NCBI GenBank assembly: GCA_045543495.1
Contig: JAZQMO010000066.1
Location: 3,007-67,006, forward strand
Length of the DNA stretch: 64,000 nucleotides
Direction: 5' to 3'
DNA from: Eubacteriales bacterium
GTDB lineage: Bacteria > Bacillota > Clostridia > Oscillospirales > SIG627
In this document: positions 36,631-59,079 of the stretch, in pieces
Layout: every line of letters starts with the position of its first letter
Position numbering within the stretch: the stretch's first letter is position 1
Notes under the pieces: generated by a model
Told to the model about the DNA's origin: nothing
Database searches by the model: none
The model's input: only the letters and a program-made list of their open reading frames with translations
Position numbers and translations under genes: made by a program

Positions 36631-37839
36631 ATGAAAAATGTATTTACCCCCGCCGATATTCTTCTCCCCAAGGACAAAAGCTTTGAAACCTGGGCCGTGA
36701 TCGCCTGCGATCAGTTTTCCTCTGAGCGCTCCTATTGGGACAGAGTGGCAAAGAGAGTGGAAAAGATCCCCTCCACCCTCCATATGATCGTTCCCGAGGC
36801 GTATCTGGAAAACATCAGTATGGAACAGGCCTCGGTGGAGCGAAATGCAACCATGCAAAAATACTGTGAGGAAGAGATCTTCTCCACCCTTGAAAATTCT
36901 TATATCTATGTGGAGAGAGAGGTTACGGGTGGCCTTATTCGCCGTGGCATCGTAGGAAAGATCGATCTGGATGCGTATGATTTCAAGCCCGGCACCGAGA
37001 CCCCCATCCGTGCCAGCGAAAAGACCGTGGTGGATCGCCTTCCCCCGAGAATTGCCGTGCGCCGCGGTGCTTGTCTGGAAATGCCCCACGTTTTGGTTTT
37101 GATGGACGATCCCGAGAGAAGTGTCATCGAGCCTCTCACCGAAAAGAAGGAGAAGCTTGAGACCGTATATGATTTCGACCTGATGGAGGGCGGCGGCCGC
37201 ATTGCGGGCTATGCGGTTCAAAAGGATGAGGCCGAGCGGGTCACAAGGGCCATTGACGCGCTCGGAAAAAGAGCGGTTCAACTGGTCATCGGAGACGGAA
37301 ACCATTCCCTTGCCGCCGCCAAGGAGATCTGGCGCAGCGTCAAGGAGACTTTGTCTCCCGAGCAGTGGGAGGGCCACCCTCAAAGATACGCCCTAGTAGA
37401 GCTTTGCAATGTGTATGATGAGGGCATCGTCTTTGAGCCCATTCACCGCATTGCCTTCTCTTGCGATCCCAGGCGTGTTTTGGCTCTCCTTGAGGAAAGA
37501 ATGTATGAGGAGGGCGGCAGACCCCTTCGCTACATTGCGGGAGAAAAGAGCGGAGAAATCCCCGTTCGAAGCGAAAGCTTGGGAGATCTCATTGCCACCG
37601 TGCAGGAGGTTTTGGATGTGTTTGAAAAGGAGGGCAGCACCCTTGATTATATCCACGATGATGCCGCTCTGGAGGAATTGAGCAAAAAGGAAAACACCTT
37701 CGCCCTCTTTCTGCCCAAAATGGAAAAGAGCGATCTGTTCTGCACCGTGGAAAAATCGGGCGTGTTCCCCAAAAAGAGCTTTTCCATCGGTCACGCAAGA
37801 GACAAGCGGTATTACTTGGAGTGCCGCAAGATCAAGTAA
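36631..37839 (+). CDS. DUF1015 family protein
   Basis: ...FTPADILLPKD...WAVIACDQFSSE...GDGNHSLAAAK... pattern that I associate with DUF1015. Confidence 0.65.
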   Translation: MKNVFTPADILLPKDKSFETWAVIACDQFSSERSYWDRVAKRVEKIPSTLHMIVPEAYLENISMEQASVERNATMQKYCEEEIFSTLENSYIYVEREVTGGLIRRGIVGKIDLDAYDFKPGTETPIRASEKTVVDRLPPRIAVRRGACLEMPHVLVLMDDPERSVIEPLTEKKEKLETVYDFDLMEGGGRIAGYAVQKDEAERVTRAIDALGKRAVQLVIGDGNHSLAAAKEIWRSVKETLSPEQWEGHPQRYALVELCNVYDEGIVFEPIHRIAFSCDPRRVLALLEERMYEEGGRPLRYIAGEKSGEIPVRSESLGDLIATVQEVLDVFEKEGSTLDYIHDDAALEELSKKENTFALFLPKMEKSDLFCTVEKSGVFPKKSFSIGHARDKRYYLECRKIK

Positions 37840-37882
37840 AAGAAAAAAGACGACTGAAAGGCTACTTCTCATAAAGATGTTA

Positions 37883-37920
37883 AAAACCTCGATGAAATTC
37901 ATCGAGGTTTTCGCTTTTTT
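37883..37920. terminator. strong terminator after DUF1015 gene (bidirectional)
   Basis: 13-bp perfect stem aaaacctcgatga / tcatcgaggtttt with loop aat, followed by cgctttttt. Confidence 0.65.
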
Positions 37921-37941
37921 ATAAGGAAAGAGCCGGCATCG

Positions 37942-37966
37942 CATTTGCGCACACAAATGTTTTTTT
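37942..37966 (+). terminator. second tandem terminator-like hairpin
   Basis: catttg cgcaca caaatg followed by seven T. Confidence 0.4.
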
Positions 37967-38004
37967 CGTGATACCCAAACCCTTTTTACAACAAAAGAAA
38001 AAAA

Positions 38005-38220
38005 GTTATATTCTGTGCTAACGCACAGAGTGATATTTTCACTTTGTGAAAGTGTTATTACTCCCTCTCGTCGTAGTGGTATTTTATTCTCCTCCGAAAC
38101 TCGCGAAGCGAATACCACTCGGCTTTTAGCCGAATATCACTGCGAAGCAATATCACTCGCCGTCAGGCGAATAAAACTGCGAGACTTCCTTATGAGAAGT
38201 CTCGCAAAGTCGTCTTTTTT
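38005..38220 (+). repeat. array of AATATCACT-type 9-mers alternating with unrelated short hairpins (copy 1); possible structured ncRNA
   Basis: Direct 9-mers: 38111 (AATACCACT), 38133 and 38149 (AATATCACT), and 38170 (AATAAAACT). A perfect inverted copy, AGTGATATT, is at 38029-38037. Seven self-complementary spacers have unrelated sequences, and the array ends in a 10-bp terminator hairpin at 38179-38205. The strand assignment is tentative. Confidence 0.5.
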
Positions 38221-38227
38221 GTGCTTT

Positions 38228-39598
38228 TTATTGGGGAAGCTTGGGCTTTAAGTCGGCGGGAATGGGAGAGGTGTACTTGCCGCCTGTTTTCTCGGTATGC
38301 TCCTTCTTTGCCTGAATCAGCTCCTCGGGTCTGTCCATCAGGCGCATCAGGGATGCGGCAACAGCCTTGCCCGCCCACAGAGCGGATCTCTTGGCATAGC
38401 TGCCTCGGCTTTGGGAGGTACTCTGCCAGCTGTGGCCGGGAGTTCCGATCACCCAGGTGCCCACGTGCATCTGCACCGTAGGAACCACCCAGCTGACATC
38501 TGCCGTATCGGTAGAGCCGCCGTGTGCCACGGGAGGAGCGGGATCCTTCACAAAGGTAGAGAAGGGAGGAAGGGTCTTGGCTTCGTCACTGAGCTTCATA
38601 GTAGCCTGCAAGGCCTTACCGAAGGCCAATTCTTCTTCGGTGGGAACGGGAAGAGGAATGTCGTGCATGGCTTCGTTTGCAATCTTTTGCAGGGTGGGAA
38701 TGGTGATCAGATTGGAGTAAGCGCTGGTGACCTTGGAGGTAAATTCGGTTTCGGTCATGGTAGCGGCTCCCTTAGCCAAAAGATCTACTCTATCCTTTAA
38801 TTCCAATACCTCCTGACAGGTGGTGGCACGGATCAGATAGGTGACCGAAGCGTGAGACTGCACCATATTGGCGGCGGTTCCGCCGGTGTCGGTAATGGCG
38901 TAGTGGATTCTGCTGGTGGGGAGCATATGCTCACGAAGGAACTGGCAGCCGATGTTCATCAATTCCACCGCATCCAGTGCGCTTCTTCCCTGATGGGGAG
39001 CGGCGCCTGCGTGGGCGGTGATGCCCTTGAAGTCGTAATCAACGTGAATGTTGGCCAAGGCGGGACGGGTGCGCACCATATACATGCTTTCGGGGTGCCA
39101 GCTGACAATGGCGTCAATCCCGTCAAAAGCGCCGTCACGGGCCATAAAGACCTTTCCGCCGCCGCCTTCCTCTGCGGGACAACCGAAAAGGGTAATGCTG
39201 CCCTTTCCTGTTTTTTCAATGTATTTCTTGACAGCAAGCACCGCCGCCAGAGAGCCTGCGGCAAACAGATTGTGCCCGCAGCCGTGGCAGGTATCCTGAT
39301 CGGGAATGGGTCTTCTCTCAGCAACCTCCCCCTCCTGACTCAGGCCGGAAAGGCCGTCAAACTCTGCCAAAACACCAAGGCTGGGGGAGCCGGTGCCGAA
39401 GCTTGCCTTAAAGGCGGTGGGAATTCCAACCAAATTTCTCGTTACGGTAAAACCGTTTTCTTCCAATTTTTCTGTCAAAAGCTTGGAGGCACTCACCTCA
39501 GCAAAGCAAAGCTCGGGCTTTGCCCAAATGGTATCGGAAACCTCGCAAAGCTCTTCTTTTTTTTCGTCAATGACGGATAAATATTCTTCGTACTGCAT
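38228..39598 (-). CDS. M20-family amidohydrolase (AbgB-like)
   Basis: ...IWAKPELCFAE...GIPTAFKASFG...LAEFDGL...CHGCGHNL...CPAEEGGGGKV... metal-ligand contexts. ATG 39598 (MQYEEY) lies after GAAGGAGGA. Confidence 0.75.
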   Translation of the reverse strand: MQYEEYLSVIDEKKEELCEVSDTIWAKPELCFAEVSASKLLTEKLEENGFTVTRNLVGIPTAFKASFGTGSPSLGVLAEFDGLSGLSQEGEVAERRPIPDQDTCHGCGHNLFAAGSLAAVLAVKKYIEKTGKGSITLFGCPAEEGGGGKVFMARDGAFDGIDAIVSWHPESMYMVRTRPALANIHVDYDFKGITAHAGAAPHQGRSALDAVELMNIGCQFLREHMLPTSRIHYAITDTGGTAANMVQSHASVTYLIRATTCQEVLELKDRVDLLAKGAATMTETEFTSKVTSAYSNLITIPTLQKIANEAMHDIPLPVPTEEELAFGKALQATMKLSDEAKTLPPFSTFVKDPAPPVAHGGSTDTADVSWVVPTVQMHVGTWVIGTPGHSWQSTSQSRGSYAKRSALWAGKAVAASLMRLMDRPEELIQAKKEHTEKTGGKYTSPIPADLKPKLPQ

Positions 39599-58779: not shown

Positions 58780-58793
58780 TGAAGAATGAAAAA

Positions 58794-58886
58794 AATATCA
58801 CTAAAACCGTAGGTTTTAATATCACGATTGCCGTCGGCAATCATATCACTCTTTGCGTAGCAAAGAATATCACTATATAAAAATTA
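58794..58886 (+). repeat. array of AATATCACT 9-mers alternating with unrelated perfect hairpins (copy 2), 24-nt phase; possible 3'UTR RNA element
   Basis: Units start at 58794, 58818, 58842/3 and 58866. The spacers are aaaacc-gta-ggtttt, gattgcc-gtc-ggcaatc and ctttgc-gta-gcaaag. A degenerate AAATTACT is at 58881. Confidence 0.55.
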
Positions 58887-58929
58887 CTACCCGAAAAAGA
58901 GGTTTGTTTTCTCTTCTTCGGGTAGTTTT
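58887..58929. terminator. long bidirectional terminator hairpin closing the array
   Basis: ctacccgaa...ttcgggtag (9 bp plus an inner helix) followed by tttt. On the minus strand it is followed by taattttta. Confidence 0.55.
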
Positions 58930-58932
58930 GTC

Positions 58933-59079
58933 TTATACTGTCCCAAGCAGGGAATTTGTGTACCAAATTCCGTTTTTAATATCCGTATAAACGCTGTAGC
59001 CTGTTTTTACGCTGTTCTGCATGACAGGCTTGTCGGGAGAATAGATCTCTCTTGCAAATCCAATGGAGATAGAATTCAT
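58933..59079 (-). CDS. possible 48-aa small ORF downstream of the MBL hydrolase gene
   Basis: ATG 59079 lies after GAGGGA. The translation is MNSISIGFAREIYSPDKPVMQNSVKTGYSVYTDIKNGIWYTNSLLGTV. It is below the ORF-track cutoff and has no recognisable family. Confidence 0.2.
   Translation of the reverse strand: MNSISIGFAREIYSPDKPVMQNSVKTGYSVYTDIKNGIWYTNSLLGTV

Follow-up and report, generated by a model that had tools for sequence, protein, structure and literature searches.

The described motif closest to the one considered here is Gut-1, known from 43 representatives in human-gut metagenomes only ('not in any sequenced organism'), which was called an RNA on the basis of covariation, was regarded as neither cis-regulatory nor a riboswitch, and was given no function (Weinberg et al. 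2010, PMC2864571). It has stood in Rfam since 2010 as a small RNA (sRNA) of unknown function, having neither an organism nor a partner. We have analysed a 64-kb stretch of DNA from a Eubacteriales bacterium (64,000 nucleotides, nt; hereafter the window), in which an array of constant 9-mers alternating with small hairpins fills the gap between two convergent genes, encoding a DUF1015 protein and an M20 peptidase. The array belongs to the Gut-1 family, and sequence comparison indicates that it probably forms the core of a small mobile repeat, rich in hairpins and found in gut Oscillospirales-type Clostridia, of which this copy lacks the gene and is inserted in the loop of a terminator.

The second point of reference is the 'S23p' protein family (PF05635/TIGR02436), whose members have been orphans since the 1990s. 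In Coxiella, an S23p-family open reading frame (ORF) lies in the intervening sequence (IVS) of the 23S rRNA gene, a 'selfish' element with inverted ends and with strain-variable tandem heptamers upstream of the ORF, and S23p forms a homopentameric toroid according to the structure cited in that work (PMC4990558). Avd, an accessory protein of diversity-generating retroelements (DGRs), is also a pentamer (PMC6182149), and PDB entry 2RLD contains five chains. In the literature searched we found nothing on the function of Gut-1, no description of the composite architecture, of the insertion in terminators or of the link with PF05635 genes that are reported below, and none of repeat arrays around PF05635 genes, the Coxiella IVS heptamers apart. 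Linking Gut-1 and S23p gives the two orphans a joint context that is open to testing.

The array and the Gut-1 family

The 9-mers and their arrangement as an array, as described in an earlier note made from the sequence of the window, were recovered by a 9-mer search (Table 1). The bare 9-mer is not significantly enriched over the whole window (17 occurrences against 8.9 expected, with 17 or more in 4 of 100 shuffles); the linker-plus-hairpin layout is far from chance. A detector that looks for three or more consecutive linkers separated by hairpins recovers three arrays from the window and one from 20 shuffled windows, and the corresponding frequencies are 210 arrays per 860 kb of related loci and 2 per 389 kb of shuffled sequence. 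In the same sense, the z-scores for folding of the 231-nt region are -6.8 for RNA of each strand and -5.5 for DNA. The palindromes that the note had listed are present, as is the GCGAAGC doublet (38103-38109 and 38142-38148), and the two neighbouring genes are those that it had named. A degenerate 9-mer that it placed at 38081-38090 is actually AGTGGTATT at 38075-38083, and in the left arm the third 'spacer', 38060-38074, is no hairpin.

The linkers point directly to the family, AATATCACT giving, in reverse complement, the linker of Gut-1, (A)GUGAUAUU. The Rfam model RF01706 matches 38107-38179 on the minus strand at 50.6 bits (E = 4.9e-7), above the gathering threshold of 50, and also matches, under the threshold, 38003-38087 on the plus strand (34.3 bits, E = 5e-5) and 58790-58875 on the minus strand (41 bits, E = 1e-6). 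The threshold is attained in 14 of 20 related loci, and the model alignments contain three hairpins parted and flanked by GUGA(A/U)AU linkers, with covarying stems. The statement in the earlier note that no family has such a layout does not hold, because the motif is already in Rfam: the layout is that of Gut-1, and the 2010 seed alignment holds the same two-arm composites, marks a predicted terminator immediately before the motif and includes even the same tRNA-Arg locus. The window locus is another member of the Gut-1 family, sharing with it the three hairpins, the linkers and the gut source. The difference is that Rfam models a single arm, whereas here a two-arm composite lies in an apparently inserted repeat, which occurs in many gut Clostridia assemblies and is linked to a protein gene.

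The locus counts given below refer to a set of at least 120 loci, retrieved with a strict pattern for the linkers only and with one genome per species (L-numbers, e.g. L140, label retrieved loci that were compared with the window). Nearly all of them come from genome assemblies of gut Clostridia, from humans and ruminants, and the taxa among the matches listed are Oscillospiraceae, Acutalibacteraceae, Ruminococcus and 'Eubacteriales'. On viral contigs, a permissive linker pattern returned 119 loci, 4 of which are genuine, the rest being mostly chance matches and ordinary tandem repeats.

Among the 120 loci listed, all of the 67 adjacent array pairs are convergent and none is divergent, so that the GTGATAT-type arms of each pair point toward one another. 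The arm-to-arm gap is most often 28-31 nt, and the other classes observed, 9-11 and about 42-56 nt, mostly correspond to an innermost hairpin that was either counted or missed by the detector. The two units near 38 kb of the window together make up a single conserved unit of about 175 nt, of which they are the convergent arms. Its centre is asymmetric, and the consensus of this centre, derived from 61 oriented composites, is a fourth hairpin followed by AGTTTnnnnGGCGAATAWA. Since this conserved centre is asymmetric, the composite has an orientation, here termed F2, which in the window is found on the minus strand. The F2 order is an end hairpin with the terminator T1, the 5' arm, the centre, the 3' arm, a hairpin-bearing tail and an end hairpin.

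Dispersed copies and split terminators

Copies 72-90% identical to the window gap occur in L133, L140, L147, L180, L183, L207, L233, L236 (twice) and L009. In each of them the similarity ends at the element border and the flanking genes are unrelated; indeed, a tblastn search of 239 loci found no encoded relative of the four proteins that flank the element in the window. The long copies (L140, L233 and L183; 350-430 nt, 72-83% identical) match from about 37837 to 38222, and the match takes in the right-hand hairpin together with the two hairpins that had been assigned to the DUF1015 gene as terminators. The sampled loci contain roughly one extra array per 37 kb, and two elements are present in the 64-kb window.

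The borders of these copies point to insertion. In the window, the two halves of a palindrome (Table 1) are 100% complementary over 13 nt, lie 352 nt apart and enclose the whole content of the gap; together they probably once served both the DUF1015 and the M20 gene as a bidirectional terminator. Each of eleven independent long copies (272-372 nt), that of the window included, is enclosed by a palindrome of its own, split in two; these palindromes measure 12-31 nt, the maximum in shuffled sequence being 11 nt, and are bordered on the outside by an A-run at one end and a T-run at the other. At L134 and L256 a gene for a four-helix-bundle protein lies together with the element inside the split palindrome. 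By their composition, these palindromes look like bidirectional intrinsic terminators broken by insertion. Also, the element carries outward terminators of its own, the M20 gene being served by T1 (38207-38177, minus strand) and the DUF1015 gene by 37883-37911, and 52 of 57 composites have a strong hairpin right in front of CAGTT(T/A)TATTC, which identifies the first 'linker' as the U-tract of a terminator. An insertion would in this way replace the termination signal that it destroys, and would stay harmless.

In the explanation that we favour, a 352-nt unit would thus have been inserted in the loop of the terminator common to the two genes, with a core of two convergent Gut-1 copies around the conserved asymmetric centre, framed by end hairpins, and the Gut-1 arms would be the conserved internal module of the element. 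For the window this leads to a modest conclusion: what occupies the gap is a repeat element rather than a regulator specific to this locus and acting on the DUF1015 or M20 genes. An element of this kind, which disrupts terminators and supplies substitutes for them, is relevant to the annotation of gene boundaries in gut Clostridia.

Mobile elements with comparable habits are known. Class C group II introns, IS1397 and the IS110/IS1111 family insert at or into the hairpins of intrinsic terminators or of repetitive extragenic palindromic (REP) sequences; in comparison with the group II introns and the IS110-type elements, the window element has no reverse transcriptase, ribozyme domains or DEDD recombinase. 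Miniature inverted-repeat transposable elements (MITEs) and the palindrome-associated transposable elements (PATEs) derived from IS200/IS605 are likewise short, non-coding, multi-copy derivatives of a longer element that carries a gene, with end hairpins or inverted ends and a tolerated insertion at gene ends. The window element does have terminal inverted repeats (Table 1), and in other copies the two end hairpins have their apex sequence in common. Unlike in MITEs and PATEs, no transposase partner was found, the longer relatives encoding only the PF05635 protein, the junctions of the 11 copies show no target-site duplication, and the target is the apex of a terminator hairpin. REP sequences, with the bacterial interspersed mosaic elements (BIMEs) that contain them and the REPIN doublets associated with RAYT transposases, are also high-copy palindromic units, intergenic, at gene 3' ends and in inverted doublets, some of which flank a characteristic gene, and in all of this the present element resembles them. 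The flanked gene here is that of a non-enzymatic-looking four-helix-bundle protein (PF05635/TIGR02436) and no Y1 family is found among the recurrent neighbours, where in REPIN-RAYT systems it encodes a Y1 HUH enzyme; the combination of constant linkers and variable stems is the reverse of that in REPs.

These similarities are the ground for a second explanation, in which the hairpins of a REP/BIME-like or IS200/IS605-PATE-like element are single-stranded DNA sites for a tyrosine HUH transposase (RAYT/TnpA) encoded elsewhere, the four-helix-bundle gene being a passenger. The inverted doublets, the hairpins at both element ends in conjunction with the missing target-site duplication, and the insertion into hairpin loops are all as expected of such an element. 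The left-end hairpin acts as a terminator, and the left-end hairpin of IS200 has been described as one; C-GNA-G triloops, which are exceptionally stable in DNA, dominate one strand. Against these points, no transposase family recurs in the 860 kb around the 120 listed loci, the part of the flanked single-copy gene is held by the four-helix-bundle protein and not by a RAYT, no conserved tetranucleotide is seen at the junctions, and REP stems are conserved in sequence whereas these vary. We therefore regard this explanation as quite unlikely. The suggestion of the earlier note that the array might be recognised by an HUH-type enzyme as single-stranded DNA hairpins comes nearer to these results: the array would belong to a mobile, hairpin-bounded element in hairpin loops, but no HUH enzyme was found near it, the only consistently linked protein being the four-helix bundle.

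The same features have also to be weighed for a module evolved in place and domesticated by the host, serving between convergent genes as a bidirectional multi-hairpin terminator or insulator, or as a supercoiling or protein-binding site, in the manner of roles proposed for BIMEs. The arms always face outward, with GTGATAT-type units meeting an incoming polymerase from either side (67 of 67), two units score as terminator-like, arrays classed as single never occur in divergent gaps, and there is a sense bias of about 24:12 relative to the upstream gene, as judged from crude ORF calls. Strong terminators ahead of the arms imply, though, that these would seldom be reached by polymerase; termination does not explain why a 9-mer should be so strictly conserved when it is not rich in U, and the protein-cassette link together with the split host terminators points to insertion rather than local evolution. 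Such a module is a very improbable explanation of the array.

The second element of the window, a partial copy (Table 1), starts 11 nt past the stop codon of a DUF4340 gene and has a terminator at 58951-58971; L182 and L205 are 86-90% identical to it over 58788-58981. Transcription of its plus strand would make 58790-58981 the 3' untranslated region (UTR) of the DUF4340 gene, in the AAUAUCACU reading.

Table 1. Positions in the window of the repeat element, its parts and the related features
Feature	Position	Strand or orientation	Basis and details
Whole repeat element, apparently inserted, 352 nt	37856-38207	-	Copies at non-orthologous loci L140, L233, L183
T1: end hairpin GCGAGACTTC...GAAGTCTCGC, then AGTTTTATT	38177-38207	-	13 pairs, TTTTATT tail
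Gut-1 unit, the 5' arm: four GTGATAT-type linkers, three hairpins	38107-38179	-	RF01706
Centre: fourth hairpin CGCTTCGCG (minus strand) and AGTTTCGGAGGAGAATAAA	38084-38110	-	61 oriented composites
Second Gut-1 unit, the 3' arm, third hairpin decayed	38003-38087	+	RF01706; homologous arms in L233, L180, L140, L183
Element tail	37856-38002	-	Terminator scan, inverted-repeat search, alignment of copies
Bidirectional terminator hairpin of the tail	37883-37911	terminator on +	13 pairs
Second hairpin of the tail	37942-37966		
End repeat	37864-37880	inverted relative to 38184-38200	17 nt, 88%
Left half of presumed split host palindrome, AAAAAAGACGACT: A-run and GACGACT	37843-37855		Inverted-repeat search
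Right half of presumed split host palindrome, AGTCGTCTTTTTT: AGTCGTC and T-run	38208-38220		Inverted-repeat search
9-mer AATATCACT	38133 and 38149	direct	9-mer search
9-mer AATACCACT	38111	direct	9-mer search
9-mer AATAAAACT	38170	direct	9-mer search
9-mer AGTGATATT	38029	inverted	9-mer search
Extra 9-mers, one mismatch each	38004, 38051, 38075	inverted	
Second, partial copy: one arm and tail, two terminator-like hairpins	58790-58981	+	Gut-1 match on minus strand

Two mechanical ORFs run through the repeat element, at 37393-38118 on the minus strand (241 aa) and at 38015-38251 on the plus strand (78 aa); they are almost certainly not genes and could mislead automatic annotation.

Selection on the hairpins

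When loci are picked on linker sequence alone, 86% of the spacers are perfect full-length Watson-Crick hairpins, in comparison with 0.5% in shuffled sequence. Compensatory change is seen in 23 of 33 predicted pairs across 37 composites, one example being a pair found as CG in 14, AU in 12, UA in 7 and GC in 3. This agrees with the view of the earlier note that structure is under selection while the sequence of the stems varies, the linkers being the conserved part. In a set of 589 hairpins the closing pair is C-G in 86%, and the loops are polar, reading TTC, TAC, TGC, TTGC or TTAC on the GTGATAT strand and forming GNA triloops and GNRA or GNNA tetraloops on the opposite one. That the spacers are unrelated in sequence, as had also been claimed, is correct within one element and incorrect between copies: the 589 hairpins contain 187 distinct stems, and the stem of each position recurs in other copies. 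This is what a dispersed repeat entails, its stems differing by position within the element and yet recurring from copy to copy.

The idea of mutually exclusive folds, in which the inverted 9-mer would pair with one or another of the direct ones, finds no correspondence in the linkers, whose variants are not mirrored between the arms; in L128, for example, every linker of the 5' arm is AGTTATATT and every linker of the 3' arm is AGTGATATT. A long ladder of four-way junctions between the arms was considered as well and rejected, linker variants being uncompensated across the arms, and the outer helix predicted by RNAalifold is uninformative because it is invariant. The hairpins are under selection, and arm-to-arm pairing is not supported.

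Such covariation is typical of structured RNA, and Rfam indeed types Gut-1 as an sRNA. The array could then be a stand-alone sRNA, or a UTR segment, that shows single-stranded AAUAUCACU or GUGAUAUU sites and serves as a platform or sponge for an RNA-binding protein, which might be the four-helix-bundle protein. In line with this, the left arm is closely preceded by a promoter-like site and a TAnAAT is conserved in the centre; the partial copy at 58790-58875, with a stop codon on one side of it and a terminator on the other, would be transcribed as a 3' UTR, and the ATATCAC strand has GNRA and GNA loops and, in the unbiased count, an excess of wobble-compatible mismatches. Several observations speak against it. 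Outward terminators on both sides of the arms would block read-through from either gene before the array is reached, and neither a -35 box nor an extended -10 element is conserved in the centre. Gene-linked copies have their promoter downstream of the array, so that the array is absent from that mRNA. There are tens of dispersed copies per genome, inserted in terminator loops, and the opposite polarity of the arms means that one transcript cannot present a single motif throughout. An sRNA or UTR sponge, which the earlier note had put forward, therefore fits poorly and is unlikely. What is listed as a 'candidate sRNA' can belong to a mobile repeat as one of its arms, and this bears on the annotation of RNA motifs derived from metagenomes.

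The promoter-like site (37985-38012, plus strand) reads TTTACA-16-TATATT, with 10 of 12 matches, and its -10 box shares bases with the left arm's first linker; the long element copies keep the TTTACA region. It lies in the tail and is the sole match of the promoter scanner, which in the centre found, beside the conserved TAnAAT, neither a -35 box nor a TG extension.

If the array is the core of a mobile repeat, as we favour, its constant 9-mers would be repeated recognition units, and the palindromes would fold out in a single strand, of DNA or RNA, bringing the 9-mers side by side; the stems may differ so that each of them folds locally. The reader of the 9-mers could be a recombinase acting in trans or the cassette's own pentamer-forming protein.

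Association with a four-helix-bundle protein

The protein partner emerges from the neighbourhood of the composites. Clustering of 1881 ORFs from the 120 listed loci left only two recurrent neighbour clusters, an AraC-type regulator and a four-helix-bundle protein of 117 aa, whose gene adjoins the composite in 6 of the 120 loci among the matches listed. This protein matches PF05635 ('23S rRNA-intervening sequence protein', E = 3e-28) and TIGR02436 ('four helix bundle protein', E = 9e-32) and is weakly bAvd-like. At five of the six genome loci the composite is upstream of the gene, with its F2 orientation on the strand of the gene, and is followed by a near-consensus promoter whose -35 box abuts the last linker. 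At L226 the gene is enclosed by one GTGATAT arm and one ATATCAC arm, and the ORF of L254 is also placed between arms. A metagenome scan with protein alignment retrieved 80 loci, 68 of them with enough upstream sequence, and in 63 of these 68, which encode close homologues, an array lies at most 260 nt upstream of the start codon; the remaining five carry remnants or the giant array. The close-homologue loci represent at least 15 distinct genomic contexts. In the full-length relatives of the window element, the same arms stand immediately upstream or on either side of a PF05635/TIGR02436 gene, of the S23p family and distantly Avd-like.

More distant homologues have other repeats. A 50%-identical homologue (L322/L323:2740-2955) is preceded by a tRNA gene, a terminator, a two-arm composite and a promoter, its linkers being ATGATAT and ATATCAT, the linker having changed along with the protein. 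The Bacteroides PF05635 genes of the 2RLD type (L324-L332, gene at 1501-1878) lie within operons, between araD and araA or between an aminotransferase and a DAHP synthase gene, and are flanked within about 60 nt on either side by inverted arrays, (TTGACAA)n upstream and (TTGTCAA)n downstream; L330, from another clade, has a 14-nt unit, GAGAATTGATAATG, and its inverse instead of heptamers. Within one species, sampled from many human guts (L260-L319), the 330 nt upstream of the gene vary chiefly by the gain or loss of entire hairpin-linker units: two units are deleted in L267 and L280, and one is duplicated in L305. This variation resembles the variable number of heptamers reported for the Coxiella IVS. 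In the giant element of L254, at least 18 near-identical units of GTGTTAT plus a TCGCC/TCGGC hairpin precede the four-helix-bundle gene, with at least 18 more, inverted, about 530 nt downstream (regions 1-340 and 1240-1640); such near-identity indicates recent tandem amplification.

Since the repeats co-vary with the protein, the latter may be what reads them. We tentatively suggest, as a possibility short of a probable one, that the Gut-1 'RNAs', instead of being sRNA genes in their own right, are the repeated cis module of an unrecognised class of small mobile cassettes that insert in intrinsic-terminator loops, and in which PF05635/TIGR02436 genes are bounded by inverted repeat arrays read by the pentameric protein. 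The cassettes would on this suggestion share their protein family with the 23S rRNA intervening sequences, be related through it to the DGR accessory protein Avd, and carry arrays made of 9-mers plus hairpins in Oscillospirales and of heptamers in Bacteroides and Coxiella.

The element can be compared in this respect with the IVS of Coxiella and Leptospira, both being small selfish elements with PF05635, inverted terminal repeats and tandem short repeats upstream of the ORF in strain-variable number (PMC4990558). The differences are that here the arms are interrupted by hairpins, pairing between arms is not conserved and gene-less copies predominate. The window element lies between protein genes, with no rRNA in the window, and not in helix 25 or 45 of 23S rRNA; the window copy has no PF05635 ORF between its inverted repeats, and its relatives L226 and L254 do. 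A type III toxin-antitoxin system (ToxIN-like), in which an array precedes an endoribonuclease of the ToxN/AbiQ type, does not correspond to what was found: arrays do precede a small gene, but its protein is a four-helix bundle, and most arrays are orphans.

A number of results weigh against a mobile repeat with its own protein. No empty site was recovered in close relatives (86% and 72% protein identity), whose synteny ends exactly at the DUF1015 stop codon, with other neighbours beyond, and the insertion is consequently deduced from the split palindromes and not from a before-and-after pair. L140 has the right outer half-stem of the window, GTCGTCTTTTTT, as well, so that part of that stem might belong to the element. 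The junctions of the 11 copies show, beside the missing duplication, no conserved target motif, and no transposase or recombinase is encoded in the element or recurs beside it among the 1881 clustered ORFs of the 120 listed loci. The 64-kb window contains no four-helix-bundle gene, and most gene-linked copies have both arms on one side of the gene and not at the element ends. The four-helix-bundle proteins are near neutral (isoelectric point 6.2-6.8), unlike the basic, nucleic-acid-binding bAvd, which weakens the case for 9-mer binding by them. Finally, tests of the folding strand conflict or are underpowered: the detector that permits G-T pairs counts 58 G.T against 38 A.C mismatches and the unbiased one 19 against 38, and the counts per arm are too small.

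Two minor observations concern gene-less copies and the sites occupied. The centre at 38084-38100 (minus strand), GGAGGAGAATAAA, with the consensus GGCGAATAWA, resembles the region from ribosome-binding site to start codon, AAGGAGAATATG, that precedes the gene of L226, and by this likeness the gene-less centres might be a remnant left after deletion of the gene. The elements are often found directly behind tRNA genes, past the tRNA terminator, as in L127:1326-1727, L130:7310-7595, L260:1175-1356 and L322.

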